From Rhizodiscina lignyota (Eukaryota), in contig ML978122.1 of the NCBI GenBank assembly GCA_010015805.1, positions 1,956,453 through 2,020,452 of the forward strand: 64,000 nucleotides of DNA, written 5' to 3'. Under the pieces are notes generated by a model. That model was not told the origin of the DNA. It saw only the letters and a program-made list of their open reading frames with translations, and searched no databases. Made by a program: the position numbers and the translations under genes. Each line of letters begins with the position of its first letter. Position 1 is the first letter of the stretch. Positions 1-60,008 of the stretch are shown here, one piece after another.

Positions 1-3000
1 CCATATTCTCTCCTCCTGGCCCATCAACGACCGCAGACACAGCGCGAGTGTCCATACCAATAAGGTCGAGCTGTGCTTGGTTGATCTTGATTGCACTTGT
101 CTTGCTCGTCTTACTAACGCCCTCGACTTGCGTCCTGAAAACCTCGCGCCTTTGATGCAAGTCAAGCATGAAGCTATCGAGCTTCGTCTTTAGCCCGGTC
201 GCATGTTCTTTGCCCTGGCCCAATTCATCGGATTCCTTGTGCTTGTAGATGTGGCTCAAGTACAATGGAGAGAAAAGAAGGCTGTATTTGATCGTCGCAA
301 GATGCCGTCCGAATTTCTTGCTTGATTTTCCAGGACCAGGCCAGATCTTCCCTTGATGCACAGGTAACGACATGGCGCCGGAGAACATTTTCCACCAGCT
401 GAAGAAATGGGAGAAGAATAGTGGTGTAAGGTGGACACTATTGTAATGTGTGGACGGCTCTAGATTGGTGACCGACCAGTCACGATCAACGGGCGCCGCA
501 ATTCCAACCGACATGTGTATGTGGTGGCTCCGGAAACCACGGAACGCATCATACGGTCTGCCATTATGCGGTTTCGCGTACTTCGGGTTTTTCAATACCA
601 CTTGATAATGCGGTAGAAACTCGAATGAACGTCCACCACTATCGGTGTTGCGCTCGAATACCAGACCGGCTGACCATCGGACATTCCCATGCAGCTTCAT
701 GACTGTCTTCTGGAACATCTTATCATGGCTGCCAGAAGACGACCCTGAAAGACTGCTTCGAGTATCCGAGGCATCAGACTTTAGAGAGTTTCGAACGTAG
801 AAGTTTGCATCCGGAATTGCGAGGACATAATCGTCACTGTCTACGGTCATGAAATTTTTCGGATCGGGGTCTTGGCAGATGTTCCAGAGCACGTTCTTTC
901 TCCAGCACATGACAAATCCAGCACCGTCGCCGATGATGTCGTATGGATCCCTCGTGCCTTTGAGTATAAGATGTACGTCGCCATCTCCTGCCCAGGCAAC
1001 TTTCACTCGTGAATGGAACGACAGTCTGATCTTATCCCAGAACCCGACACGCTCCGAGGGATCTACTGCAGGTTTTGTAAAGCTTTCAATGACTTGCATA
1101 GTGTCTTGGATAGCTGGCTGATACGAGACACCCCATGTGATCTTGGTCGGGTTACTCGTGTTGATGTTGGCGGCAATATCCGAATAGGTCTTGATGGCTG
1201 CAATAGTTCGCCGAACATTGACTGTGTAGCCCTGGCCCTCATTGTCTGATGTAGTGCTGTCGGGTGGCACCACGACCACATCAACCCTGCGGATCGACTG
1301 CTCATCGCGGAATTCCTCGGCGATCACAAAGTCAGCCTTTAGCGAAAGACTGCCTTGTTTATGAGATTGTCCATAGGCAAGCGCTGGGACATGGAGTAAA
1401 GGAAGCGGGTAATCTCGAAGAGTGACACGAGCTTCCCCCATTCCAAGCTGCACGCTAGTTGGAATCAGCAGACCGTACTTCATGTCATACGGCATGCCCT
1501 TTCCAATACGATGCAAGAACTCTGGGTAGTCGTTTAATGGGAAGGATGGTTTGTCAATCAAAATGCTCAGATCGCTGATCTCGACGGCCATAAGTGCTGG
1601 TCGTTGGGGTACCGCCAAGATCATCTCCGGCTGCTCAACGTCGTCCGGGATATCATCCAAAATGCCAAAGCTGTGGCGGATGTCTTTCATTCCCCGATTC
1701 TGGAAGTTCATGTTGTGATCGATCCTCCGCTTCCAGCTTTGTGCATTGAGTTTCAAGAGTTGATCCCAAGCTTGGTCAATGCTTCGATGCGACTGGTCGC
1801 TCATCTCGCAAGTGCCTTCCGCATCATAGTGCATACGTCGGCCGCGTCGTTCTTGACGAGGAGGAGAAGGTTCACGCTCTCGCTCAGTGCCATCTTCACT
1901 TTGACTCCGTCGCTTAGGCTCTTCCTTGTGCCTTCGACGTATCCGGCCGCGTGGACTTTTGGTTCGCATATTGTGCGCAGACTGGGTTCTGAACCTAGAG
2001 CCACCGCCTTTGTTCTTCTCAAGGTCCGTGAGCCTCTTGACTTTGAGGCGGAATGCTTCTTCCCTTGCGAGTCGTTGTTTCTGCTCCTCCAGACCAGTCC
2101 GAAAAATGCAACCTATCTTCCACTCGAACGATCCATCTTCAATTTCGAACAAGAACGCTGAGCTTTTGAAAGATATCCTTGGAACATGTTTTGGACCCTC
2201 CGGTTCCTTCTCGAGAATGTATTCATCAGTACCCGTTTGGAATCGATGATGCAGCTGCTCAACAGTCTTCTTGACATTCACAATATTATCCATGATCTTG
2301 TGGACGACAAGCTGATGAGGTATCGCGATTCTTGTTGCGTCTGCAACAACGTCGAACGATCTCTCCTCAACGAACGAAGCGCCGATTTTCCGCCTTGCTC
2401 TTCGATAGTCAAAGCGCAAGGATCGGAAGCTGATTACACGAGTCCAAACGTTGCGAACATTTGGTGTCTCGGCATAGAGTCGAATCAGCTTTGATCGAAG
2501 GAAAGGGAATGCCCAACGATGTCGTCCAGCCTCTACGCTAAACACCTGCAGCATTAGAGGAGGATCGGTGGGCATTGAAACCTTCACTTGTACGAATGCA
2601 GCTCTAAAGTCTAGCGTAGTAACTTCTGGTCCATCTACGCTAGATGGTCTGTCCCCCGGAACCAGAAGAGATGAGCTTGACTGTTGATGTGTCGGAGAAG
2701 GTCTGGCTGACGATTGCTGTGGCTTCTGAAACGTTTTTTGCAGTACGGTCATAGCCATACCAACAGCAAAATGACGGTATAGAGAATAATTGGCGGTGAG
2801 GCTTCTCGCAAAGGAATTGACATGGAACAGGGGTCCTTGGTTATCCGTAGAAGTAGTAAAGGCTACCTCAAATCTGGGTAACGAGAGGAATGACTCTGGT
2901 TCCCATGTATCTGCTGACTCAACCACGAAGGCCTCTAAGCCCTGCGTGTGTATTGCAAGCCTTCGGCCATCAGTGGCACTTGAATGTCTTCTCCGACTAG

Positions 3001-5248
3001 GGGGTGCGGGGGATGACTGCCTGGGAGAGTCATCTCCACGGCGGACCGATTTGCTGACAGCTCTATGGCGTGCAGTTGGAGATTGTAGAGGTTCTGACTT
3101 GTCTGCTCGATACTCGGCGTTCCAGCTTTCCAAATGCAGGGCCAAGCCACGGGCTTCTCTTGAGACCTTCGTGTCGACGCCAGCGACCTCGACATTAAAG
3201 TCTGCTCCATGAACTTGCACATTCTGTAGCCACGAAGGAAGCCTGCGCAAAAAATTGGATCGGGGAGTTTCGGATGACGAATTTGGCACGAGGAAAGTAT
3301 CGCTCCGCAGCTGGGCGACGATCTGGCGCACACCTTCACTGATTTCCGGGCGGACCATATAGATTGAGAATGTCTGGACGTTTGCTGTTGCAATGACAGC
3401 AACATCCGGTGATGCACTGACTTGCACTTTAATCTCGAACGTCTCGGTATTGTGGAGATTGAACTTCTCGCCGGAGGCAGTTTGGTAGTAGAGGTTGTGT
3501 GATGTGATTCTGAAGTTGGACGACAATGCATAGTGCAAGTCTCCGCCGGCAGAATGGGAGGACTCAATCTCAAGAGACATTGCAGACATGGCAGATATGA
3601 GGAGGTCGAATTCATCAGTTCCCTTCTTTTCTACTTCCATGGGTGGTAATGCCACTCGAGTGACAGGCTCATGCACTGAGATCTTGATACTGGCCTTCGG
3701 GAGAAGTCGAGAGATGAGATGATGGCGAGTTCGTGAATTAGGCCTTGACTTGGGATTTGAAGATCTTTCCCGACGCTGGAGAACAGCAAGCATCAGTGGT
3801 AAGTGCTTTGGATCCAGATCCACGGACGGGGAGGTGACGACGAGATTAGCAAAGAGAATGTTAGTGTTCCGCTCTGCGACGTTCTTTTCCCGTGTAAACT
3901 GAATAGTCTTTGATGGCAAAGTTGTCCGCATAGTAGCTGTGGCCATTGGTACGTACATGAGTCGCTCCGGATGCTCTTCGCCATCGTCAATACCTATGGA
4001 AATTGAAATGGCGGTAAGCAGTGCTTGATGGGCGACGTCCTTTGGAGAGAAGTACATGAGATGAGCAGGGCTTTTTGGATCAAGTCTGAGCAGATCCAAG
4101 CTGATCTCCTTCATCGAGATGTTCAGATACACCGGTGGGCCCGAAGGTTGAATATCACGGACTCGCTGACTCATGCCGAAGAAGCTAATTGCAAATTGCA
4201 CCTCCTGAATGCCACGGAGGATCGAGCTGACGAACTCTTTGGAATCCGACACTGTCTGCACGATCGATTCTTCGGTGCTTCCAGGGCTTTCCAATTCGTC
4301 CATGACATTCTCAAAGTACACTTCTGAATCGCTGGCGGGGCCCTCCGGATGCGGCCTGAGTGAACGTCTCCAGAACTTGATCTGCTGGATGCTGCGCTCA
4401 ATATCATCATACGGCAGGCTGACTCTTCCAAGTTTAAGTGCAACTGAAGCGTCACGAAGGCCATCCAATTCCGGAACCAACAATCCATGCACATTGAGAG
4501 TGCAATTGTCCAGAATTTCCGTCGACTCCTTGCCCTCTGGAAGAAACAGAATGCTTCTGACATTGATTATCCATTCAGCTGGTCGTTGATTGGCCGATTT
4601 TGCACGTCGGTGCTGAAATAGGCGACTCCTGTCGACGGTCTTACGACGCGTATCTACAGCCATTGTGTAATGAGCCACCTGAATTGTGCCAACGTCGACA
4701 ATTACCAAGGACGTATTCGTCGCAACCAGGTCGAACATGCGGATCCAGTTTATTTTCCGATGAAGGCGCTTGATCCTCTCTTTAGTCTCGGTCAAGCGCT
4801 CCCAAATCCGACTTCTCTGAGAATCATTTTTAGGCTCTGGTGAGACACCAGGAGTCCCAGGGTTTGTAGGACTGCCTGGCGGAGTCTCCAAGAACGACCT
4901 CGCCTTCGTTTCTGGAACAGGACTGCCGTTCGTCCATGTTCTCCACCGCCCAGACTTGTGAGTCTCTGTTCCAAGCGTCTTGAGATCGACTGTGACCTTG
5001 AGTTCTGTGAGAACTATACTGAGCCATGTTGGTTGCGCAAATGTTGGCCGGTGCAAACTTAGTCCAAGTCCACGAATGTCGACCCGTATGCCTTCTTTCG
5101 GGGAGAAAGAGATTCGGCGCAAGCTCGCATATCCGAGACGCTGTATCGAGATACCCGTGATTATGCGTAGGAGCGCGAAGACGACGAAGGAAGAGAGGTA
5201 TAGTAGGGCGAAGACGCCGACTATGAATGAAGGGTGGGGAAGAGCCAT
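1..5248 (-). CDS. FMP27: Fmp27/Hobbit (BLTP2) bridge-like lipid transfer protein, 5' part; runs off the left edge
   Basis: ATG at 5248 gives MALPHPSFIVGVFALLYLSSFVVFALLRIITGISIQRLG...LHRPTFAQPTW. GFWDKIRLSFHSR lies near 1045-1007. The same frame reads ...KINQAQLDL...RAVSA at the window edge. It is missing from the ORF track, consistent with no stop inside the window. Confidence 0.92.
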   Translation of the reverse strand, partial: MALPHPSFIVGVFALLYLSSFVVFALLRIITGISIQRLGYASLRRISFSPKEGIRVDIRGLGLSLHRPTFAQPTWLSIVLTELKVTVDLKTLGTETHKSGRWRTWTNGSPVPETKARSFLETPPGSPTNPGTPGVSPEPKNDSQRSRIWERLTETKERIKRLHRKINWIRMFDLVATNTSLVIVDVGTIQVAHYTMAVDTRRKTVDRSRLFQHRRAKSANQRPAEWIINVRSILFLPEGKESTEILDNCTLNVHGLLVPELDGLRDASVALKLGRVSLPYDDIERSIQQIKFWRRSLRPHPEGPASDSEVYFENVMDELESPGSTEESIVQTVSDSKEFVSSILRGIQEVQFAISFFGMSQRVRDIQPSGPPVYLNISMKEISLDLLRLDPKSPAHLMYFSPKDVAHQALLTAISISIGIDDGEEHPERLMYVPMATATMRTTLPSKTIQFTREKNVAERNTNILFANLVVTSPSVDLDPKHLPLMLAVLQRRERSSNPKSRPNSRTRHHLISRLLPKASIKISVHEPVTRVALPPMEVEKKGTDEFDLLISAMSAMSLEIESSHSAGGDLHYALSSNFRITSHNLYYQTASGEKFNLHNTETFEIKVQVSASPDVAVIATANVQTFSIYMVRPEISEGVRQIVAQLRSDTFLVPNSSSETPRSNFLRRLPSWLQNVQVHGADFNVEVAGVDTKVSREARGLALHLESWNAEYRADKSEPLQSPTARHRAVSKSVRRGDDSPRQSSPAPPSRRRHSSATDGRRLAIHTQGLEAFVVESADTWEPESFLSLPRFEVAFTTSTDNQGPLFHVNSFARSLTANYSLYRHFAVGMAMTVLQKTFQKPQQSSARPSPTHQQSSSSLLVPGDRPSSVDGPEVTTLDFRAAFVQVKVSMPTDPPLMLQVFSVEAGRHRWAFPFLRSKLIRLYAETPNVRNVWTRVISFRSLRFDYRRARRKIGASFVEERSFDVVADATRIAIPHQLVVHKIMDNIVNVKKTVEQLHHRFQTGTDEYILEKEPEGPKHVPRISFKSSAFLFEIEDGSFEWKIGCIFRTGLEEQKQRLAREEAFRLKVKRLTDLEKNKGGGSRFRTQSAHNMRTKSPRGRIRRRHKEEPKRRSQSEDGTEREREPSPPRQERRGRRMHYDAEGTCEMSDQSHRSIDQAWDQLLKLNAQSWKRRIDHNMNFQNRGMKDIRHSFGILDDIPDDVEQPEMILAVPQRPALMAVEISDLSILIDKPSFPLNDYPEFLHRIGKGMPYDMKYGLLIPTSVQLGMGEARVTLRDYPLPLLHVPALAYGQSHKQGSLSLKADFVIAEEFRDEQSIRRVDVVVVPPDSTTSDNEGQGYTVNVRRTIAAIKTYSDIAANINTSNPTKITWGVSYQPAIQDTMQVIESFTKPAVDPSERVGFWDKIRLSFHSRVKVAWAGDGDVHLILKGTRDPYDIIGDGAGFVMCWRKNVLWNICQDPDPKNFMTVDSDDYVLAIPDANFYVRNSLKSDASDTRSSLSGSSSGSHDKMFQKTVMKLHGNVRWSAGLVFERNTDSGGRSFEFLPHYQVVLKNPKYAKPHNGRPYDAFRGFRSHHIHMSVGIAAPVDRDWSVTNLEPSTHYNSVHLTPLFFSHFFSWWKMFSGAMSLPVHQGKIWPGPGKSSKKFGRHLATIKYSLLFSPLYLSHIYKHKESDELGQGKEHATGLKTKLDSFMLDLHQRREVFRTQVEGVSKTSKTSAIKINQAQLDLIGMDTRAVSAVVDGPGGENM

Positions 5249-5901
5249 GGTGGCTTCTCCGCCATGAGCGGAGACAGCGTCGGTGGAGTGGAACAAGGAG
5301 CGGCCGTTAGGTTGGAGAATTGCGAGGAGATAGTTGGGACAGGTTGAGGGAGGTTCGTGACAAAGCTATGCCATAGCTCTGGGTTGTTCCGCGCATGCAC
5401 GCATATCTGCCGCGATTGCGAACTGTGGGGAATGCGGGCGATTTAAGCCTCGTATCTGTGAGCCGCACCCGGCCGAAAGAATTGAAAGAATGTGTGGTCA
5501 ATGGCAGTACAGAGGCGAAACCCTCTACAAAGGAGATTGTGTTAGAGATACGTAGTACCCTGTGTGAGGTGCGAATTTGCCTCTGCGTGAGAGCGAGCCC
5601 AAGATGTAATTGCGCAGCAACTTGTAGGGCTACTAGCCTGGCCTTGGCGGCCAGATTCCGCCATGAAGGAAGCGTTAACTGACTGGCATCTGTACGAATC
5701 ATCGGTACCCGGCAAGCGCTATCAGCACCCAGTTTCGGGTGCCTGGCCCCCGGGAGTTTAGTGCATCGTGAACCGCTCACTCCGCCATCAAAGCCCTGCT
5801 TTAAGCTTACTCTCATACGAGCTTACAATACGTTAATTAGCGTGTCATTTCCAAAGGAGCTTCAATCCAAATGGGTCTGTACACTATATATGTACACAGA
5901 C

Positions 5902-11532: not shown

Positions 11533-13359
11533 TCAATGCTCCAAGAAATACCAAGGCTGTCGGCCATCATACGGCTCGCCAGGAAACTCGAAGGGGACAT
11601 CGACACGCTCTTTGAAGACGTCCATGGAGACTTCTTCTCCCTCAATCTCCTCGACAGGAACAGGAAACAAAACGCCAGATTCCCAATTCCGTGCATTGAG
11701 TTTAGGCTCCTTACGTGTCCTATCCATCACAACTTTCCCCCATGCGCTCTCCGAAAGATTGGCACTGCCATGATAGACCCATGCAATTGGGGTCGATGTG
11801 CCGTCTGCTGCTTCTTTCTTACCGCGAATAAAGAGAATCTTGTTGTGACTCAGAAGACCAGGCCTAGAAGATCTGTAGTCTCTCATCAAAGCTTTAGGGA
11901 ACGTGGGTGCGGTGAACCATTGGCGCCGAAGGCAAATAGTACCAGCTGCGTCGGTCCCTCCGAAACTGTTCGCGACGGTCTCATGCGTAGGGAAATATAT
12001 CCGAAAGGAATCTCGGAGCTGCTGTCCCTTAGCTATTTTTCCATTTGCTGCCGCATTTAGAGATGGTCCAATGCCAGATACAGCATCGTACATGGTCTTC
12101 AAAAAGGCCTCGTTGAGGGATCCAAGAGATGAAGCGGCGAAATCGATCTGCATAGGTAAGGTTGTCTCCAGATCCAGCTGGCGGACTGCCCGACTCAGAC
12201 CCGGGTAGCCCGTTCTCTCCATGTCCTCTCCAAAATGCGACCCACCTACAGTGTGAATGAATGCCAGATGCGCCGTTGGTGAAAAATCGTACCGTAGTAT
12301 AGCTGTTTCAAGAGATTCCGGAACCTCCATACGCCTTAGAAAATAGTGTAGTTCCTGACCGAAGGGAGGAAGATCATCTACACTTTGGCTCTTCTCGCCA
12401 GAAGCGGCGAGGGGACCAGGGAGATCGATGATGAAAACGGAGTTTTCCATCCGTCCATCCTCGCCCCAGTCGTACTTTGTCAAGTTGGCGCTCGGGATGA
12501 CAATTCGCATGTAATCATCGTAAAAGAGAAGCATCAGCTTGCTGTGCATACAGTTGACCTGGCCCGGCATCGGTGGAAAGCAGATTTTGATCTTCGGATT
12601 GACTTCCTTTCCTTCTGCTAGGATTTGGTCCCGGTCTGCCTGAGTTTTTGCTTGCACTATCATGAGAAGATCTGTTCGGTTTACGTCAATCTTGCCAAAG
12701 AGCCACTCATGGTCCCAGAGGAACGAGCTCAGTGCTGCGCGCCGGAGTTGGTCCCTCTGTAAGACTTCTTCGATTTTGATGTCGTTTGCCCGGTTGTGGC
12801 TGGCTGCCCAAGTCCGCTTGATCACACCTATTGGATAGGCCAATGAGGATGTTGGGTGTGATATCGAGTCTTTTCCAGAATCAACAGTGGCATGTTCCCC
12901 TAACTCGGCCTTGGGTTGGGGAGTGTTCTCGGCTTCCAAATCGATAACCTCTGAAGGGCCTTTCGTTTCTGCTGGCACACTGCTGGGGCCTTCAACCCTC
13001 CTCCTCTTATATGTCTTTTCTCCGCTTCTTCGTGATGGGGGTGGAGATATTGACGACGTCGAACGCTGTCGCCTCGCAGTTCTTGCAAGCCTTTCCTGTT
13101 CCATAGCCTTCCGATTGAGGCCATGGATTCCTTTGGGAGAAAGCATCCGCTCACGTGAGCTATTATGAGCTGACTGATATCCCGAGTCAGTTTCGACTCT
13201 GCTCATATTCTGTGGTGGCGCATCACATTCATCGAGGTCAATAACATGCGGCGTTCCAGCAGTGTTGTCATTCCCGCTCTTGAGTTGAGGGCTGCTCGGG
13301 ATCTCAAGTGACATTTTAATAGCGAGTTGAAGCTCTTCATCTTCACTAGACTCTGCCAT
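11533..13359 (-). CDS. Tyrosyl-DNA phosphodiesterase (Tdp1/PLD superfamily) domain protein with an N-terminal UIM
   Basis: 608-aa ORF with two HKN-type motifs (MHSKLMLL...SANL and HNK...GSANLS). UIM-like EDEELQLAIKMSL. Confidence 0.88.
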   Translation of the reverse strand: MAESSEDEELQLAIKMSLEIPSSPQLKSGNDNTAGTPHVIDLDECDAPPQNMSRVETDSGYQSAHNSSRERMLSPKGIHGLNRKAMEQERLARTARRQRSTSSISPPPSRRSGEKTYKRRRVEGPSSVPAETKGPSEVIDLEAENTPQPKAELGEHATVDSGKDSISHPTSSLAYPIGVIKRTWAASHNRANDIKIEEVLQRDQLRRAALSSFLWDHEWLFGKIDVNRTDLLMIVQAKTQADRDQILAEGKEVNPKIKICFPPMPGQVNCMHSKLMLLFYDDYMRIVIPSANLTKYDWGEDGRMENSVFIIDLPGPLAASGEKSQSVDDLPPFGQELHYFLRRMEVPESLETAILRYDFSPTAHLAFIHTVGGSHFGEDMERTGYPGLSRAVRQLDLETTLPMQIDFAASSLGSLNEAFLKTMYDAVSGIGPSLNAAANGKIAKGQQLRDSFRIYFPTHETVANSFGGTDAAGTICLRRQWFTAPTFPKALMRDYRSSRPGLLSHNKILFIRGKKEAADGTSTPIAWVYHGSANLSESAWGKVVMDRTRKEPKLNARNWESGVLFPVPVEEIEGEEVSMDVFKERVDVPFEFPGEPYDGRQPWYFLEH

Positions 13360-13596
13360 GTCTCGGCGGTCCCAGGTGTGGGCATAAAGAGTGTGGAAGA
13401 ATGTTGTAACTTCAATCGCGAGAAGTCGCGCTATGTAACAGATATCCTATTTAGGTTTAGCGCATTTATTGAAACCCCACCAGAACCTCGATAAATTCAC
13501 GGTGACTCGGCTACGCGGTTTGAATTTCTTAATGTAACTACTACACAGAACCGTATTTGATGTCCTAATAGTTGCATATCGCGCTGTAGTCTCCAT

Positions 13597-20105: not shown

Positions 20106-23026
20106 TTAGCTTGCAGAAGCTCCAGCGCGATTCTCCTTCTGTGCCATTTGTTCGCGAAAGACCTGGAAAGTCGGCGTTTGTGCTGTTTGTGAGCTCTCTG
20201 CAGCCTGCTGGTGGGTTTTGGTATCCAGATCGTCGGGGGTCGGCGTCGAGTGTTGGCCTATATCATCGGTGGATGCCATCGTATCTGCTCCTTCATATTC
20301 AGGCCTCCCAAACGCCTCATTGATCACCTGGACCTCTGTCGCTCTGCCTCGTGCACTGTCGTAGTCAAGCTCAAAGGTGTCACCTGCACCCGCGTTTTCT
20401 TCCACCGATCTGGCTTCAAGATCAGGTTCCGCTCCCTTTCCTTTGCTAGCTACGTTCCCAGTCTTTTCAATATCATCATTCTCTTCGTCTTCTTCTTCAT
20501 CCAACATCTCCTTCTGCCCCTGCTCATCCATATTCTCATACGTCTTCTGGATCTCCTGTAAGGCCGATTGTTCTCTAGCCACCAGCTCCCTTTGGACCCT
20601 CATCCTGTGCCTCGACCTCTCGTTAAAGCTCATCTTTGCAATGGTCTCCTCGATCTTCTTCTCCACCAAGCCTTTCACATATAATGCGAGCTGCCTCGTG
20701 GAGAAGATGCCACTGAACCGGTAGCTTAGCCACAAATACAAAATGATATCCTTGTGCAACCTTTCTAGCCTCCGCAACGATGAACGTTCACCATCAGCGG
20801 GCTGCTCTAGAAGCTCGAGTTGCAGTTGCTCAGGTGGAAGGTCGAGAAGCGACCCACCCTTCTGATCTGCGACACAACGCGCAAGAGAGACCAGAAGCTC
20901 TCCAGGATCCTTACTCACAGGAGCAGCACAGAATATGATGCGGTCGGTGGTACTGAGGCCCTCTACCTTCTGAATCAAGTCTGCAACTAGGATGGCATCG
21001 CGGAGTCCGCATAGGTGAAAGCGAGAGCTCGTTCGTGATATCTCATGCAAACGGAGAAGGATGTAGCTGAAGGGAGTGCCGGGAGGGAAATATGAGCTGA
21101 AGCGCTCGACGACTGAGGATGGAGGGAATAGTCCGGCGGATGTGATAGGTTCGGCCTCCATTTTCAGGCGATCTGTGATGACGGGATAGTCGAAAGCGTA
21201 AAGCGTAGTGACCAGACCAGTCGTTGAACGGTCAGAAGAGCGCAGCGAAGTTGAAGGCTTGGGCAGAATAGTGGAGTTCTCATCTCTCGCGTGGAAGTTT
21301 GCACTTCCGGTTGCTCCCTCAATCTCACCCGAATCGAAGATAAGATCTCGTTCATCCTTTGCCGGCGCCGAACGCTGTGATGAAAGTGCAACATTGTCCG
21401 CTGGTGGTTCAATAATCTCCGTTTTCGGCTCCACTTCAGGGGGGGTAGCATCTAGATTCGATGCGGCTTCCTTATTGTCTTGGAGTGAGGTGCGGTAGCG
21501 TCCAGCTCTTCCAGCAATCTGTTTGATTTGAGAAACGGTGAGCGTCTTCATTGCCGAACCGTCATTTTTCTGGCTGGACTCGAAAATGATGCGCTTAATG
21601 CTCAAGTTCAAACCCATCCCTATGGCATCGCTTGCCACGAGGAAATCGTAATTGTTGTCAGGATCGTTGAAAAGCCGAGCTTGCTGCGCTCGAGTCTCTG
21701 GGGGCAAGCTGCCGTAGACAATTGCCACATTCTTCCCCGTGGTCTGTTCAATCTGCTTTCGTAGTGCGTGTATGCCGAGAATTGAGAAACTGACGATGCA
21801 GTCGCCCTTGCGCAGCTTATGTAGACGACCACCTAAATGCCGGGGATCTGTTTCAAGTGGAGTGAGGCGTTCATAACGGTGTATTTCCAGACTGTCTCCC
21901 ATTAAGGCCACCAGTTCCTTTATCAAAGGAACAGCCCTCTCCTCGCCACAGAGATGGACCTCCTTTGCCCTTACCCCTAGTAACGCCTGGGTCCAGGCCC
22001 ATCCACGGTCATTGTCGCCGATCATTTGGATTTCGTCGACAACAGCAACATCCATACGATTACTGCAATCCATCATCTCCACTGTACAGCTGATAAGATT
22101 GGGCTTGTCTCCATAGTCGGGAATTCTCCTCTCTTCGCCAGTCACAAGCATACAGTTCTTGCCTTTCGCGTTCATCCGTGTGTACACCTCATGAGCTAGC
22201 AGTCTGAGAGGGCCAGCATAGACGCCAGTCGCAGCCTTCTCGAGGGCCTTTAATGCGTGATATGTTTTCCCCGAGTTCGTCGGCCCAACATGGAGATGGA
22301 TCTTTCGCTGCAGTTCGCGTGTAGCTGGGTACCATTCTAGGGGGTATCTCAGGTCCGCCAGATCTTTTTGGTTTCGTAGCTCTATAGCGGAGAACCTCTT
22401 TGTCGCGATATGTCCATAGAACGTAGATTTGAGCTGTGCCTCAAACGCTGCCCAGCCATTCTCTTTGTACATTGTATGCATGGCTCGGATGAATTGTGGC
22501 CCAGATTCGAGGGTTTTGCGGTTCAGAGCTACTCCAATTGAGCTATTGAGGAGAAGTTTGAACTCGTTGAGCTGCTTGCAGAGTTCTTCAACGCTGAGCC
22601 CTAAACTGTACTGGCTATCCCATTCTGGAAGCTGTGTTTCTAGCCGAGCAAGTCCTCTCTGAAGTACATCTGAGAAATCTTCATTCTTTCGTTCATTCTT
22701 TCCTAAGACATTTGCGGGTCTGATAGTGATGGAACCCTTATTGTAGGCGGTTAAGCGTGCGGAAGGGTCGCGAATACTCCGTGTAATATCGTTTTTCTAA
22801 CTCGACAGCATCAGCACCTAAGAACCCCTAAAGACCGTCGATGAAGAGAGGTTTGGGGTCTTACTCCGTGCATCGCACCAACATATCTGATATTCTGCGA
22901 AACTCTCTTGCTTGTTGTATAAGTCGCGGCAGCGCGTTGACCGGTGCGGTTGGAGGTTGAAGCCCGCCATGATTGTCTGAAGGCGCAGAAGACACACTGG
23001 CCTGCCTGCAGAGGCCTTCGTTGCAT
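20106..23026 (-). CDS. SUV3: Mitochondrial ATP-dependent RNA helicase Suv3
   Basis: GPTNSGKT, DEIQM, ASDAIGMGLN and QIAGRAGR. Exon 1 (23026-22865) encodes an Arg-rich presequence-like peptide; intron at 22864-22797. Confidence 0.93.
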
Positions 23027-44301: not shown

Positions 44302-47297
44302 ATGTCTTCATTAGTAGACGCCGTCCTGAATTCTGATCATGCCGACATTGCCCCTGCTCAAACTCCAACCGCTGCGCGCCCTCGCACAAATGCAAGATCG
44401 TCATCCAGACCTCGCGCGCCTCCCTCAGACAGCGCAGGCGCTCACAGCGACATAGAAGGCTTCCCAGACGATGAAGTGGTTGGCACGAGGGGAACGGAGA
44501 GAAGAGCGAGAGGCCCACGAGAGGGTATTCCGCGCGTGGTCGATGTCACAGGAGAGACGCTATCGCAGCGGTTCGAGGAGTTCTTGGAATCGTAGGCGCC
44601 GTCCAATCTATACATTACACTTATACCATGCTCACAGTCTCTCCAGGTACGTGGAGGATCCAACAGCATCAGGTGCTGCAGCCTCGAGCGTGACGACAGA
44701 CAAGTACTATATCGCGCAGATTCATGGTATGCGCCAGTACGATCTGTCCACTCTCTACGTCGACTACCGTCATCTTCTGGCACACGAGGAAGGCATTGTC
44801 GCAACGGCTATTGCGGGCGAATACTACCGTTTCCTCCCTTTCATGACTCGCGCCCTTCACAATCTCATTGCAAAATATGAGCCTCGTTACTTTCGCGAGC
44901 ATCGACAACCGACTACAGCTGGCAGCACAACTGCAACATCAATCGCTGGCAATGCAACGAGCCAAGCCGAGTCAACGTCCAATTTGACGTCTAATCAACA
45001 AACGGACAAGCTCTTCACACTCGCATTCTACAACCTTCCCCTGGTCAGCCGCATTCGCGCTCTCCGCACTGCGCAAATCGGCAAACTCCTCTCAATCTCT
45101 GGTACAGTTACGCGAACTTCTGAAGTTCGACCCGAGCTGAGTCTTGCGACATTTATCTGCGAGAACTGCAATACCATCATTCCGAACATCGAACAGACCT
45201 TCCGCTACACCGAGCCAACGCAATGTCCCAATCTTACCTGTGGAAACCGGTTTGGATGGCGGTTAGATATCAGACAGAGCACGTTCGTCGATTGGCAGAA
45301 AGTCCGGATTCAGGAGAACAGCTCGGAGATTCCTACAGGAAGCATGCCTCGTACGATGGACGTGATTCTTCGTGGAGAGATGGTCGATCGTGCAAAGGCT
45401 GGCGAGAAGTGCATCTTTACCGGAACACTAATTGTAATTCCGGATGTGAGCCAGTTTAGAGTACCTGGTACCAAGCCTCAAGCGACTCGAGGCAACCCAA
45501 ACACACAACGTGGGACAGATATCGGCGGCAGTGGAGTCAGCGGTCTCAAAGCACTCGGTGTGAGGGATCTGACATACCGCATGGCATTCTTAGGATGCAT
45601 GATTACTCCAGACCTCTCTACTCAAGGCAATTCTGCAGGCCAGCAATTGCAGGGCCAAGCGGGCAACATCCTGGCTTCTCTTCACCAGACAATGATTGAT
45701 TCCGAGGACGAGACGGGTGAGAAAGCTCAAGCAGATTACCTTGAGAACTTGAGCCCGGCGGAAGTTGAGGACTTGAAAGCCATGGTGCACAAGCCGAATA
45801 TCTTCATGCGGCTGGTGGATAGCATCGCGCCTATGGTCTACGGCCATCAAGTCATCAAGAAAGGCCTGCTCCTCCAACTCATGGGCGGTGTGAGCAAAGT
45901 TACACCCGAAGGCATGGCGCTCAGAGGTGACATCAATATCTGCATCGTTGGCGACCCAAGTACCAGCAAATCGCAATTCCTCAAATACATCTGCTCTTTC
46001 CTGCCTCGAGCGGTCTACACGTCTGGCAAAGCCTCTTCAGCGGCTGGTCTCACCGCAGCGGTGGTCAAGGACGAAGAGACTGGCGACTTCACCATCGAGG
46101 CAGGTGCGCTCATGCTTGCTGACAATGGCATCTGCGCCATCGACGAGTTCGATAAGATGGATATCGCGGACCAGGTTGCGATCCACGAGGCGATGGAACA
46201 GCAGACTATTTCGATCGCAAAGGCGGGTATCCAGGCTACCTTAAACGCAAGGACGAGTATCCTCGCAGCTGCAAATCCAGTTGGTGGCAGGTACAACCGC
46301 AAGACGACATTGAGGGCGAACGTAAACATGAGCGCGCCTATCATGTCCCGTTTTGACCTGTTCTTTGTGGTTCTTGACGAGTGCGACGAGGCCGTAGATC
46401 GACATTTGGCTGATCATATTGTCAACATCCACCGTCTTCGGGACGATGCAGTGGAGCCAGAATTCAGCACCGAACAATTGCAGCGGTACATCCGATTCGC
46501 AAGAACATTCAAGCCCGAGTTCACGCCCGAGGCGAAGCAATCGCTTGTGGAGAAGTATAAGGAACTCCGAGCAGACGATGCGCAAGGTGGTATCGGCAGA
46601 AGCAGCTATCGCATCACGGTCAGGCAGCTGGAGAGTATGATCCGATTGAGTGAGGCGATCGCGAAGGCAAACTGCGTCACGGAGATTACGAGCGACTTTG
46701 TCAGGGAAGCGTACAACCTTCTCCGCCAGAGCATCATCTCTGTCGAGAAAGACGATGTGGAAATCGAGGGCGATGAAGCTGCAGAAGAAGATGAGCAGGC
46801 GGACGGCGGCGCTGATCACGACAGAGATGGCGATTCGCCCATGGCCGATGGAGACGCGGAGATGGGCGATGCGTCGAGAGCATCCGCGACTCCAGGACCT
46901 TCGCAGAAGGAGAGGACGAAGATCACGTATGATAAATACATGTCGATACTTAATACGATGGTCCGGAGAGTCAACGACGACCAGCAGTCGACGGAGGACG
47001 GTGTCGAGGAAGAGGAGCTTCTCGTATGGTATTTGGAGCAGCGAGAGGCGGAGCTGGAGACACAGGAGGACTTGGAGAGTGAGAGAACGCTTGCGAAGAA
47101 GGTCCTGAAGAGGATGGTTAAGGTATGTCGAGTCCAACTACAGCGAATTGAACAACACCGACTGACTGGTAATATAGGACAACATCCTGATGCAGATTCG
47201 TGGAGAAGGTCTCGCTGACGAGCAAGGCCAAGGTTTACAGGGCGAAGGGAAGGTAGTGTATGTCATGCATCCAAACTGCGCAGTTGAGGATATGTAG
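44302..47297 (+). CDS. MCM6: DNA replication licensing factor MCM6
   Basis: Introns at 44592-44646 and 47123-47177. GDPSTSKSQ, IDEFDKM, SRFD and ITVRQLES; C-terminal YVMHPNC. Confidence 0.97.
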
Positions 47298-50306: not shown

Positions 50307-51522
50307 ATGAGCTCAGAAGCACCGAAAACTGAACCGGGGGTTGAGGAGGCGAAGTCCACCTCGAGACCACGAATTGGAGGCCTTCTCAAGCGTGTAAAGT
50401 CCGTACTGAGAAGAGGAGGTTCTAGCAAAGAGGCAGCGACCGAATCGTCACCAATCCAGGCCGAGGAGGTGAAGAAGGACGAGCAAACGCCAGTTGTTTC
50501 AGTGGCGAAAACAACTCAACCCGTGTCTCCAACGTATGTCTCATCAGCTCCAATTTAACATACAGAGCTAATTAATATCCCTTAGTTCCCCAGTGGAGTT
50601 ATCCGCAGAGAAAGAGGTCACCGACGAAAAACAACAATTCAGAACGAGCAGACAGGCAGTCTTCGAGGAACGCGCCCGTGCCATCTTCGCAAAGTACGAC
50701 CTCAAGCTGGAGCCCGAGTGGATGCCCGTCCCAGTCGCTGGTGTCAGCCCAGCATCCACCGTAGAACGCGTCCATAAGCCCATCCGCATACGCGTGCATC
50801 GCTACTGCCATCGCTGCGAAACGGTATTTGGGCCGGACCGCGTGTGCACGAAGTGCGATCACAAGAGATGCAAGAAGTGCCCTCGGTATCCCACTGAGAA
50901 GAAGGGCGACGAGCGTACGGGCATGAGGAGAGACAGGTCAGCACAGGGGAAGGGGAAGGATAGGGCAAGATCGGAGACCAGGGAGCCGCTGCTCGTAATC
51001 CAGAGTCGGGGCACGGGACAGATTCTGGTACACCAACCCATCATGCAGAGAATCCGGAGAACGTGCCATAAATGTGAGACGCAATTCCTCCCCTCATCGG
51101 CCCAGGTGTGTACAAATTGCGGGCATCTCAGATGTACCAAGTGTCCCAGAAGTCCGGCGAAGTTGAACAAGTGGGAGTCTGGTTATCCAGGAGACGCACC
51201 GCCGAGCAGTGAAGAGGAAGAGCTAGATATGCCAAGGAAGCAAGAAAGGGTATTCCGTAAGCCAAGGCAGAGGGTCAGGTGGAATTGCGAAAATTGTTCC
51301 ACCTTGTTCCTTGAGGGCACAAAGATTTGCAGAGGCTGTGGACACCAGAAGTGCGAGAATTGCAGGAGGCAGCCGTACGTCTTTCCCTGATGCCACACAT
51401 TACATTCATACTGATTTGCGTCCAGACCAAAGAAAATCAAAGACAACTTTGATCCTGCTGTCGTCGATGCTTTACACGAGAAGCTCTCTGCACTAGTCGT
51501 CACGACCTCTGCCAGAGGGTGA
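50307..51522 (+). CDS. Hypothetical protein with three Cys/His-rich putative zinc-binding repeats
   Basis: Introns at 50534-50585 and 51375-51425. Three copies of CxxC-x9/10-CxxCxHxxCxxCxR. Confidence 0.8.
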
Positions 51523-55226: not shown

Positions 55227-57687
55227 TTACTCATAACCTGCACCCCGCGCCCAGGGACTCTCAGGGTTATGCTGGTATTGTGCTAGTATGGAGATTTTAT
55301 ACGTTATCGTTGCGTAAGGACTCATATTTGACATCACACCCTCCTTCTTCAGTGCCTTCACTATCTTCGTCTCTTTAAGGTTCTCAGCACTGGTTTCAAC
55401 AGCTCTGGAGCAAACTGAATAACGAACCTTTTTGATGGGTAGACTGGCCTGTTTCTAATTTGAAGACGTCCCCGATCCTGGTCTCGTGAACGGCAATGGA
55501 GCTTCTCATCCAGGACAGCTTGTCATTGTAGAGCTGTATTCTGAGGATGCTATTCTCAGCTACCCACCTATTCGCTCAAAACGCAAATCAGTACCTATTC
55601 GTATTAGTCTTCATCGGCCTCCTACGTACATGCTAAACCTTTCACCCCAGAAAGGACTATGTGGCTGTTGTATGGTCATTGTCCGCCGAAACTGCTCGCC
55701 ATCGATCGTAGCGACTGCGTAAGTGCTGTGAGTGGATCCCCATGCTGTATAAGCGTAAGTGTTCAAGTATTCCTTCTCATAAATGTAAGGCATGGAAGAT
55801 TTTACAGAGTAGCCTGTCCCTTAAATTCCTTCTCATATACAGCGCATCCGCAGCAATGACTGTGCACTGATTAGCCGATCTGCCTCGCAGCACGATCTAT
55901 ACTTCCTAGACTTACTCTGAAGCAAAATTGTGTATTTCTTTCGTGGGGCTGCTTCTTGGGGACGTAGATCCACGGGTTGCGGCGTCCCAGCAATGGACAT
56001 ATCATCAAAGGGCTCAAATGCAGACAAGTTAGTTAAATTAAATTTTGCGTCCCTTGGAGCAACATCTTGATATAATTGCCGAAGGTCAGGCTGGTCAGGT
56101 GAATCTGCTCTCTGCTCTGAGCCATTCGCTGAAGTGGGCCCTCCGTCGCTTGGAGCACGAGATTGATCCAACTGTCCCGGTTTGGGTGGGCCTACTTCTT
56201 GCTCTGGCTTATCAATCGCAATATTAGGGGCCTTGGACTTGGATCGAATAGTGCGCTCCGTATCAGACAGAGAGACGAGGTGAGATGTATCCTCAACCTC
56301 AGGCAGCATTAATTCTTCGATTGCTGACCCGTTAGAATATTCTCTCCATATATTCGATGCCTGTGGCTTACGCGTTATCTGAGACCCATGTCGTCTCTCC
56401 GTATGCTCTCGTGGAATGACTTGAGGCGGGGAGGCGAGGCGAGATGAATCATCGCCTTTCGGCTGCGTTGCTTCTTCGATTGCCGAGCGATTAGAGACAA
56501 TACTCCATATTCCTGAAGCTTCTGGCATTTGCCCTGTGCGAGGCGCGTCCCGTCTTTCCGTATGTTCCTGTAGAATGACTGGAGCGCCGAGCGGTGAATG
56601 AGTTGAGCAGTGTTCTCTGAGCTTAGTGCTAGCCTGTTTCAGCCACGGATGTTGAAGAGCCTCACTTGCTTTCATCCGACGGTTAGCATCTACTGCCATG
56701 AGATTCATGGCGAATTGAACTCCATCGGGTCCAGCAGAGGGAACAAGGCGTCCTGAAGGATATTGATCTACTCCTCGACAGTAATCCCCTAGGGCACGGA
56801 GATTCTTAAAGGTACGCTCACCAGTGAGCATTCGAAAGCCAATCTCTCCCAGAGCCCACATATCAGCCGGCTGATAGTCGTAGGGTTGCGAATCATTAGC
56901 GGGCTGGCCGAAGCCGAGGAGTTCGGGTGCCATAAACTCCAGCGTGCCTTTTACAGTTGATGGTCCACCTCTGTCTGCAGCGCGGTTACTGATGCCAAAG
57001 TCGCCAAGTTTTACCCACCATTCCGCTGGTGGATGTGATCTGATAAGTATATTCTAACCAAATATGGCTGTTAGTCGCTGTGACACGAATATATGGCGTA
57101 AACCTCCTTACTGCAGGCTTCAAATCTCTGTGTGCGAATCCATTCAAATGCATCTCGCGAAGGCCCTCTAGGATTTGACTGGTCAACTCTCGAGCTTCTG
57201 CAGGCGGCAATCTAACGTTGAAGAGGTAGTCATGAAGATCGCCAAAAGGACAGTATTCCATGGCAATATAGATTGCCTCCGCATCGTCATACCAGCCAAA
57301 TGATTTCACGAAGTAGACGTTGTACTAGAATCTGTCAGGTCTCGCAAAAATTGTTGAATCGACACGATGTTGACTCACTTTTGGATGAGCAAACTTTGCG
57401 ACCGCTTCCAACTCTCTGTAAAAATCAATAGCCTTCGGCGAGGTTTGCCGCTTATGGACCATCTTCACTGCGCGCACATGTCCAGTGCTGTTGCCTTCTA
57501 CGCATTTTTCCAGCCAAACACGTCCGTATGATCCTTGTCCAAGATCCTTTTCTCGTTTCCACCGCTCTTCTCGAGATATGCGTCGGCGATTGGTACCCGC
57601 CTCGGTATAGCTGTGGACAGTGTGGTGATCGTTGAAATGTGTGTCGAGTTTCGAATCACGTACAAGATCGGGTATCGGAGGCATCAT
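55227..57687 (-). CDS. Ser/Thr protein kinase with a C-terminal Rsp5-like C2 domain
   Basis: GQGSYG, AVK, HRDLKPANIL, DFG and APE. Introns at 57378-57325, 57111-57054, 55915-55860, 55805-55745, 55629-55568 and 55427-55373 keep the frame to the TAA at 55227. Confidence 0.82.
56265..56582 (-). repeat. Diverged 159-bp tandem duplication in the kinase linker
   Basis: VILQEHTERR...ASGIW...SAIEE versus VIPREHTERR...ASNIW...SAIEE; AATGACT anchors at 56574 and 56415. Confidence 0.85.
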
Positions 57688-58145: not shown

Positions 58146-59808
58146 ATGGCCGGTGTGGATATCGCTCTTGCTCTCCCCGGTGTGGTGGACTTAGCAATAA
58201 AGTAAGTCGGCTTCACTTGCTTCGCCCGTATCGTGTGTCAAACGAAGAGTCACCATCTAATCCCAAACAAATATGGCAAAATCTTGATCCAGACTTGCTC
58301 CGCCTTCAAAAATGCAGACCAGGAGATCTTTGAGCGCGCCATTCGTATCGAAAGCTGCTGGAAGCGAACAAGTGTGCAGTTGGATTCCTTAAGTCGGGTT
58401 TCGAGTGATCTAGATGAAGAACATGAAGCACTACAGAATCAGATTTTAGTTATCCTCAGCTCAAAGCTTAAGGCTGCCGATCTCAAGTTAAATAGTTATC
58501 TCGAGGAAGGACCTTGCCCGAGCCCCGAGAACTCTGCCACATCATCCAAAATGGTGAAGATCAAGAGATTCAAATACGCATTGCTAAAAGAATCCCTGGA
58601 CAAGACCATCTTGGACTTGGAGTCGTGGCAGAAAGAGCTTTTCGATCCATCATGGTTTCTGATCGCGAGAGTTGCAGGACAACTTGTCGATAAAGAGCTG
58701 TCCGGCACGAGCCAAAAGAGTAACGTCATCACAACCGCTTCGGGTGTGCGTGACTCGTTGAGTAAAAGTCCAAGGCAAAACGTCTCTGTATTTTTACCAG
58801 AAGACGGATTAGAGTCGGCCAAAATTGCTCATATACCTTTGAGCTCTGCAAAGTCGGTGCAAAGAGCAGGCTCTACCAAATGGCTCATCCAGGACTCGAT
58901 ATCATGCGAGTCATCCGCAGATTTCTCCCAGCGAAGGAAAGCGATTCGGGATCTGGGAAGAAAATTAAAGGCTGCCGATCCTTCAACTTTTGCACTACTG
59001 AACTTAGTCGGCGTTGTCGCGGAAATTGCGTCGAACGAGTTTAGACTAATTTTCAGAACACCGGATAAGATGGACGACCCGCAATCTCTACGGACTGCTC
59101 TCATATACAAAGACTCGAACCATTCTCTCTCAGATCGATTTCGAATAGCCACGCAGTTAGCAAGAGCAATATGTTCTTTCCATACGTTTGGATTTGTGCA
59201 CAAGAGTATCCGACCGGAGAATATTCTCCTGTTCCAAGACGAAGATTCAATCCTCGGATCCGCATTCCTTCTTGGCTTTGAAAAAATACGTCTAGAGGCA
59301 GGTCAGACGCGACTGACTGGCGATGACGCTTGGGAGAAGAACCTCTATAGACATCCTCAACGACAGGGTGTGAAACTCCAAGAACCCTACGTCATGCAAC
59401 ACGACATTTACAGCCTTGGAGTCTGTCTGCTCGAAATCGGCCTTTGGCAGTCTTTCGTACTGTATGACGATGCATCTTCGAGCCCCAGTGAGGCAGTGGC
59501 TTACAGGTTCGGTGCAAAAGCTACAGACAGAGCAAGCTATGCAGAGTCTGTTAAGGGCAACTTGCTCGGTTTAGCTAGAGAGTCGCTTCCAAGTCGTATG
59601 GGATGCAAGTACGCAAAGATCGTTGAGACCTGTCTGACCTGTTTAGATGAGGGGAGCGATGATTTCGGGGATGAATCGGAATTTCAGGATGAAGACGGCG
59701 TTTTAGTTGCTGTGCGATATATCGAAAAGGTAGGCCACCTTGTGCGTCTCGCGGACAAACAGCTCACGTCTCAAGGTCCTTCTACAGCTTGGCAACATTT
59801 CAGTATGA
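58146..59808 (+). CDS. HeLo-like N-terminal domain plus pseudokinase (MLKL-like architecture); intron 1 acceptor looks defective
   Basis: MAGVDIALALPGVVDLAIK|YGKIL..., HKSIRPENIL, LLGFE, NLYRHPQRQG and HDIYSLGVCLLEIGLW; last intron at 59730-59775. Confidence 0.75.
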
Positions 59809-60008
59809 GAAGACCGAATGCGGAAACCACCAAACTGTCTTGGATGATCAGAGTCTAGTATGTGCGGTTGAGTGTAAGCCATGATCCTTATCGTATTTAA
59901 TTGAGTTCTCAGGAAACGAGCGATAAATGTCCGAATTGGAAGCAACATTGCAATAGATACGAAGGAGGGCTTCTTCCATACTGCTCAGACTGCCGTAAGT
60001 CATCCATT

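Follow-up and report, generated by a model that had tools for sequence, protein, structure and literature searches.

An Rsp5-type C2 domain, probably captured with its introns, at the C terminus of a kinase gene in the fungus Rhizodiscina lignyota

In a 64,000-nt stretch of the Rhizodiscina lignyota genome (assembly GCA_010015805.1, contig ML978122.1, positions 1,956,453 to 2,020,452 of the forward strand; hereafter the window, by whose numbering all positions are given), we identified a Ser/Thr protein kinase gene that ends in a C2 domain of the Rsp5/Nedd4 type. The gene lies on the minus strand from 57684 to 55227 and has seven coding exons for a protein of ~703 aa, the last four of which are small and encode the C2. 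The comparisons described below make it quite probable that this domain is a diverged Rsp5/HulA C2, copied as genomic DNA, attached to the kinase at its 3' end and still coding. The component of this reading that concerns descent, namely that the C2 exons would derive from an intron-bearing genomic copy of the 5' end of RSP5, is strongly supported by intron positions and phases.

An initial annotation, made from the letters of the window alone, had proposed that four small exons follow in frame on a kinase open reading frame (ORF). We reproduced this from the window sequence and found all the peptides that it quoted. The kinase ORF, 57684 to 55916 on the minus strand, leads into a GTAAGT donor at 55915, and its third exon terminates in ...KKYTILLQ followed by a single A, which opens a split Ile codon. 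The intron that follows (55860..55915, 56 nt, GTAAGT..CACAG, phase 1) falls in the first Ile of the motif I-I-A-A-D; its retention would put a stop at 55835-55833. Small exon 1 (55806..55859, 54 nt) encodes the beta-1 strand IAADALYMRR and a loop, and the next intron (55745..55805, 61 nt, phase 1, acceptor ATACAG), in the beta1-beta2 loop, starts at 55805 with the weak GTAAAA donor that had already been pointed out. Small exon 2 (55630..55744, 115 nt) reads ...YAVATIDGEQ...SPFWGERFS and closes on the AT of a split Met codon, within which lies the third intron (55568..55629, 62 nt, GTACGT..GAATAG, phase 2). Small exon 3 (55428..55567, 140 nt) encodes WVAENSILRIQLY...RIGDVFKLETG... and ends on the G that opens a Glu codon (G|AG), which is interrupted by the fourth intron (55373..55427, 55 nt, GTTCGT..TTAAAG, phase 1); small exon 4 (55227..55372, 143 nt plus the stop TAA) contains ...KALKK... 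and supplies the last C2 strands. The four introns that precede the small exons are all GT–AG, with phases 1, 1, 2 and 1, and all six introns of the gene measure 54-62 nt. Scripted assembly of the exons joined the kinase and the four small exons into one open frame of 703 codons with its TAA at 55229-55227.

The nearest relatives of the domain are the C2s of ligases with C2, WW and HECT domains. We made a profile of two kinase tails, that of the window gene and that of P0002, the homologous protein of another fungus described below, and searched it with HMMER against 1.84 billion representative proteins (E ≤ 1e-3). The search gave 186 matches, the best at 57 bits. Pfam was run on 38 of the 150 matches listed (of the 186), these being the eleven best together with the longer sequences; a C2 was found in all 38, together with WW in 18, HECT in 4 and a kinase domain in 3, and no other C2 family appeared among them. 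For some of the matches a name was recovered, that of NEDD4 or HulA ligases in Neonectria and Fusarium; P0017, P0018, P0152 and P0162 bear the names of Rsp5, NEDD4 or HulA ligases. Against residues 14-108 of the Rsp5 protein P0017, the spliced window peptide gave an alignment of 103 aa with 29% identity and 55 bits, and the core C2 motifs YAVATIDGEQ, SPFWGE, ENSIL and RIGDV are kept in it. When scored with a hidden Markov model (HMM) of our own, built from 16 full Rsp5-type C2s among the matches of the profile search, the peptide reached 48.4 bits. Matches to the protein kinase C (PKC) type of C2 in Pfam (PKC_C2) were weak and occurred only on Rsp5 proteins. The initial proposal of an Rsp5/Nedd4-type C2 fused to a kinase is thus upheld, the best matches of the domain being Rsp5 C2s. 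At the DNA level, tblastn with P0017 and P0152 matched the window at 55623-55721. Since nothing resembling HECT or WW was found with the same two queries anywhere else in the window, the locus is not RSP5 itself; a Pfam scan of the public protein of this gene (P0001, see below) likewise showed no WW or HECT domain.

The intron-rich 5' end of RSP5 had been named as the source of the small exons, and we compared the introns of the two genes in position and phase. From metagenome contigs we took 80 loci encoding relatives of P0020 and ran 32 of them in our own protein-to-DNA spliced aligner, with L001, a cDNA-like locus, translated to serve as the reference; the 32 were chosen by tblastn footprints suggesting introns, plus a few intronless controls. 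Four common introns were found in 20 of the 32 metagenomic RSP5 loci, some of which are duplicates, so that this and the following counts are not independent. The first is in phase 1 at aa14, in the first Ile of I-I-A-A-D (Ile14; 21 loci), the second in phase 1 at aa27, in the beta1-beta2 loop (Arg27; 24 loci), the third in phase 2 at aa62, before R-V-N-E-D-S-I-L (Met/Leu62; 23 loci), and the fourth in phase 1 at aa106/107, in the Glu after G-G-D (27 loci). In pairwise alignment, the split Ile of the window gene (intron 55860..55915) corresponds to the aa14 intron and its split Met (intron 55568..55629) to the aa62 intron, both to the exact codon and phase. The latter intron, 55629-55568, was also placed at aa62 in phase 2 by the spliced aligner, from homology alone. 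The split Ser (phase 1, intron 55745..55805) lies inside an 8-aa insertion adjoining aa27 and matches in phase, and the split Glu (G|AG, phase 1, intron 55373..55427) is 3-4 aa off aa107, in a gapped loop with an insertion. With two of the four introns identical and two compatible, the C2 exons would have been copied as RSP5 genomic DNA and not via mRNA. The claim of a captured RSP5 5' end is therefore borne out; the agreement of intron positions is exact for two introns and for the other two extends to the phase, within gapped loops.

Traces of the same introns appear among the protein matches. Most of the matches to the two-tail profile are ORF fragments of 60-140 aa in which RSP5 exons run into introns. 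In 116 of 153 sequences, G-G-D is followed by Gly and unrelated residues, the read-through signature of a phase-1 intron in Glu, and 76 fragments have Arg ahead of the (R/K)-V-N-E-D-S-I-L exon, the signature of a phase-2 acceptor. A Dothideomycete sequence, P0025, reads in frame through the first (aa14) intron. The residues that precede the first small intron in the window gene, I-L-L-Q, align with L-R-V-T at the start of Rsp5 beta-1, which may be a sign that the capture also included the last part of RSP5 exon 1, four residues being weak evidence. The RSP5 loci themselves vary. An extra phase-2 intron at aa6 was seen in 7 of the 32 (L052, L054, L060, L062, L066, L067 and L069), two loci (L023 and L029) have a different pattern with a phase-0 intron at aa22, and some others are intronless. 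L009 and L036 contain the last intron (aa107) alone and may represent partly spliced transcripts or another lineage.

A protein search with the 406-aa ORF of the window retrieved a public "kinase-like protein" of R. lignyota (P0001, 676 aa) at 100% identity, and its exon chain could be rebuilt exactly from the window. P0001 contains the last three small exons and omits exon 55859-55806, joining 55916 to 55744 via a 171-nt intron; skipping the 54-nt exon preserves the frame. It also starts the third small exon at 55540 and not at 55567, using an acceptor at 55541 and an 89-nt intron, so that 27 nt are omitted. To describe the exons as hidden, as had been done initially, is accordingly correct in part: three of the four are in the public protein, while small exon 1 is skipped there and the C2 is missed by Pfam. 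The precomputed domains of P0001 are kinase families only, and the C2 is invisible to Pfam in this model because of the skipped exon and the acceptor 27 nt off. Scored with the Rsp5-C2 HMM, the splicing of the initial annotation (small exon 1 included, acceptor 55568) gave the 48.4 bits reported above, compared with 43.2 bits for small exon 1 skipped and acceptor 55568, 30.1 bits for small exon 1 included and the public acceptor 55541, and 25.0 bits for the public model. Use of acceptor 55568 instead of 55541 gains 18 bits, and the higher scores favour the initially proposed splicing at both disputed junctions. The introns are then uniform in length (54-62 nt), in comparison with 171 and 89 nt under the public model. 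Judged by homology, the public model mis-splices the C2 region; where the genome paper (PMC7082219) speaks of annotation, it names only the pipeline of the Joint Genome Institute (JGI).

R. lignyota belongs to the order Aulographales of the Dothideomycetes, and the best homologue of its kinase is P0002, a hypothetical protein of Trypethelium subeluteriae (Dothideomycetes, Trypetheliales) that shares 54.7% identity with the window kinase over 380 aa. Like the window gene, P0002 consists of a kinase, a linker and a C-terminal Rsp5-like C2, just the second half of which is recognisable in the deposited model. Its C-terminus scored 57.9 bits against the Rsp5-C2 HMM, and its tail best matches the C2–WW–HECT ligases P0017 and P0018 (46% identity, E ~4e-6). 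Unlike the window copy, which has lost them, it keeps the polybasic K-R-S-K-K-K as well as G-F-L-G and G-G-D-E-M. Because the Trypethelium homologue also ends in an Rsp5-like C2, the kinase–C2 fusion is probably old, and the two sequences make a single capture before the split of Aulographales and Trypetheliales the likely course of events. In a tree of 47 C2s, the window C2 was placed within a 99/99 clade with the four-intron RSP5 loci and the Rsp5 proteins of Neonectria and Fusarium (Sordariomycetes). Several observations speak against a simple reading of these data: the free tree search keeps the C2s of the window and P0002 apart, their branches are very long (6.1 and 5.47 changes per column, respectively) and the tree position is hence unsure, and the gene model of P0002 comes from a metagenome-assembled genome. 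An approximately unbiased (AU) test did not reject a clade of the two C2s (p-AU 0.575), the constrained log-likelihood being better by 1.21. Taken by itself, the tree is no evidence for a single origin and none against it.

No further kinase with a C-terminal Rsp5-like C2 was found among the 150 matches listed (of 186), from which P0001 and P0002 are themselves absent, so that proteins of this kind can escape a library of representatives. In P0037/P0170, in P0151 and in P0107 of Tulasnella sp. 403 the arrangement is reversed, with the Rsp5-like C2 at the N-terminus and the kinase at the C-terminus; P0107 has two C2s and a WW domain. These proteins resemble the window gene in joining an Rsp5-type C2 to a kinase, but their kinases are unrelated to the window kinase, with at most ~31% identity over short stretches. 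The opposite order and the unrelated kinases point to independent fusions, in which the RSP5 5' module was joined to kinases more than once.

The kinase part of the gene occupies three exons. Exon 1 (57379..57684) starts with the ATG at 57684, carries the G-loop GQGSYG and the AVK lysine and has a Pfam Pkinase match; exon 2 (57112..57324), with the HRD motif, is flanked by introns of 54 nt (GTGAGT..TCTAG) and 58 nt (GTAAGG..GTTAG); and exon 3 (55916..57053) encodes DFG, APE, the C-lobe and a linker of ~230 aa. Pkinase (PF00069) matched P0001 at 168.4 bits, against a cut-off of 31.7, and covered residues 1-138 of the exon 3 ORF. As the catalytic motifs GQGSYG, AVK, HRD, DFG and APE are all found, the kinase is presumably active. 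Only the generic Pkinase family matched, and no test placed the window kinase among the AGC kinases. The kinase is lineage-restricted. Among the homologous kinases, many have WD40 beta-propellers at the place of the C2 (P0003, P0005, P0006, P0007, P0010, P0015 and P0016, P0005 being from Bathelium mastoideum), and P0002 has the Rsp5-like C2; on these architectures, the C-terminal module of the family is variable. Within the linker, at 56290-56600 on the minus strand, two stretches of ~45 aa that start with EHTERR and end with ...SAIEE look by eye like a duplication, which neither self-BLASTP (E ≤ 0.01) nor Tandem Repeats Finder reported.

Resemblance by chance, or an annotation artefact that merely makes the peptides look Rsp5-like, would agree with two of our searches: sequence searches of the PDB with single exons returned chance matches only, and the public tail (P0001 residues 540-676), searched by word index, retrieved nothing but itself among 62 candidates, which reflects a limit of sensitivity and not an absence of relatives. 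We nevertheless rejected this explanation and give it practically no weight, as the 186 profile matches with a C2 in all 38 scanned, the 48-bit HMM score and the two intron positions and phases identical to those of RSP5 rule it out. A decaying relic, with RSP5-derived exons lying outside the functional product, deserves more attention. Either the first small intron is retained and the mRNA ends at the 55835-55833 stop, for a product of 580 aa, or the tail is translated, has no function and is on its way out. A number of observations fit such decay, and several of them also count against our own reading. The donor of the intron after small exon 1 is the weak GTAAAA at 55805, and the public model skips this exon; the public and homology models differ at two junctions; and the Pfam C2 (PF00168) scores 12.6 bits on P0001, under its gathering cut-off of 22, and 16.1 bits (E = 0.014) on exon 55744-55630 alone, also under the cut-off. 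For the eight-stranded beta-sandwich of a C2, an AlphaFold2 model of the tail of P0001, made from an alignment with 21 Rsp5-type rows, had a mean predicted local distance difference test (pLDDT) score of 49.8 and a predicted template modelling (pTM) score of 0.41, too low for use as a query in a fold search, though two strands are absent from that tail. The C2 branch is, as noted, very long. According to the account of Dunn et al. (PMC2172079), the C2 of yeast Rsp5 binds phosphoinositides, is sufficient for membrane localisation and becomes soluble when K44, K45, K75, K77 and K78 are changed to Gln; the window residues aligned pairwise with these five lysines are Q, Q, L, W and M. All five positions are thus nonbasic, which would fit decay; G-F-L-G is lost as well. 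Two further points bear on the reading as a captured and still coding C2. The intron comparison was made with metagenomic loci and not with the RSP5 of R. lignyota, and an alternative in-frame acceptor for the second small intron, 55715, scores equally well (49.3 vs. 48.4 bits) and was the one chosen by our spliced aligner, with loss of the conserved Y-A-V stretch. Acceptor 55745, which the public model shares, was preferred, since with it the Y-A-V-A-T stretch is retained.

The state of the coding sequence nevertheless argues against a relic, which we consider unlikely. The frame is open over four exons, and when the spliced coding sequence of the C2 (453 nt) was shuffled 20,000 times by mononucleotide, only 5 shuffles were free of stops in frame, the other two frames of the real sequence containing 13 and 10 stops. 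Every splice site is GT–AG and the intron sizes are uniform, the core motifs persist at an overall identity to Rsp5 of 29%, and the Trypethelium homologue likewise retains its C2 tail. A neutral relic at this level of identity should lose its frame, and we infer that the C2 exons have been kept by selection. For a C2 captured from RSP5 and still coding, the course of events may be pictured as follows. A partial duplicate of the RSP5 5' end, introns included, would have been fused to the kinase ORF at its 3' end by exon shuffling or partial gene duplication and not by retroposition. The captured C2 may at first have tethered or regulated the kinase at membranes, and would have been retained as a targeting or regulatory appendage. 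With its polybasic patch kept, the Trypethelium C2 could still bind acidic lipids; the Rhizodiscina C2 would have lost lipid binding in the manner of Rsp5, and now most likely acts through protein contacts, either regulating its own molecule or binding partners, or else is drifting towards loss. The suggestion that the domain acts as a membrane sensor is weakened by the replacement of the five lysines. The other role suggested initially, that of an integrated decoy, gained no support from any test. Under this explanation, the kinase family would have exchangeable C-terminal sensor modules and the Rsp5-like C2 would mimic Rsp5 to sense what targets it. The points in its favour are circumstantial. 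The WD40 propellers of P0003 and P0016 weakly match NLR-type propellers such as NWD2, the loss of lipid-binding lysines while the core of the fold stays would suit a bait, and the divergently oriented neighbour at 58206-59858 is a DUF7580/kinase-like protein. However, the Pfam matches of P0001 are to kinase families and, weakly, to C2, with no NACHT, NB-ARC or HET domain and none otherwise linked to cell death or immunity, and the tests are equally compatible with an ordinary targeting domain. No effector is known to target the Rsp5 C2. A decoy or sensor is thus very improbable, and it is just as improbable that the C-terminus of this family would be an exchangeable sensor slot, filled by NLR-like WD40 propellers in many homologues and by an Rsp5-derived C2 in Rhizodiscina and Trypethelium, with the lipid-blind Rhizodiscina C2 as a bait mimicking Rsp5. 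If this were true, the kinase would signal that the trafficking system of Rsp5 is under attack, or what state it is in, and the sensor slot would be a fungal counterpart of the plant immune receptors that contain kinase fusions.

The surroundings of the gene are those of ordinary housekeeping genes, and the region is not obviously unusual. The window encodes Hobbit/FMP27 (2-5365), Tdp1 (11533-13446), the SUV3 helicase (20106-22796), a multicopper oxidase (34090-35943), MCM6 (44456-47218) and a DUF7102/SAM-like protein (60009-62900). An open frame of 550 aa on the plus strand (58206-59858) is divergent from the kinase gene and shows weak, subthreshold similarity to DUF7580 (21.7 bits) and to families of kinases across residues ~290-480; its product is possibly of a pseudokinase type. 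A second plus-strand frame, of 272 aa (50572-51390), contains three similar Cys-rich units (C-x-x-C ... C-x-x-C-x-H-x-x-C-x-x-C) and had no Pfam match at E ≤ 1e-5.

The case provides a well-documented domain gain in a fungus by genomic exon capture, in which the donor gene is identifiable (RSP5/HulA) and the kept intron positions and phases form a fossil record of the capture event. It corrects a public gene model in two places, a 54-nt exon that was left out and an acceptor misplaced by 27 nt, and offers a natural experiment on the role of an Rsp5 C2 after its lipid-binding lysines have been removed. In titles and abstracts of the literature, we found no description of a kinase with an Rsp5-derived C-terminal C2. 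C2-bearing kinases and the capture of domains by exon shuffling are both known kinds, and their combination here is functionally modest; as the kinase is lineage-restricted, the wider impact is modest too.

Among known systems, the closest counterpart is the N-terminal C2 of Rsp5/HulA in the Nedd4 family, where PF00168 is followed by WW and HECT. Motif order agrees between it and the window C2 all the way from beta-1 to the final strand, and the positions and phases of introns are common to both genes, two exactly and two in phase. The two differ in that the window C2 is C-terminal on a kinase, without WW or HECT, has ~29% identity to its counterpart, contains the 8-aa insertion in the beta1-beta2 loop, and reads QQ and K-L-S-W-M-R in place of the lysine patches KK and KKFKKK, on which membrane binding depends (PMC2172079). 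Protein kinase C similarly unites a kinase catalytic domain and a C2 module in one polypeptide, but there the C2 precedes the kinase and is of a different C2 subfamily.

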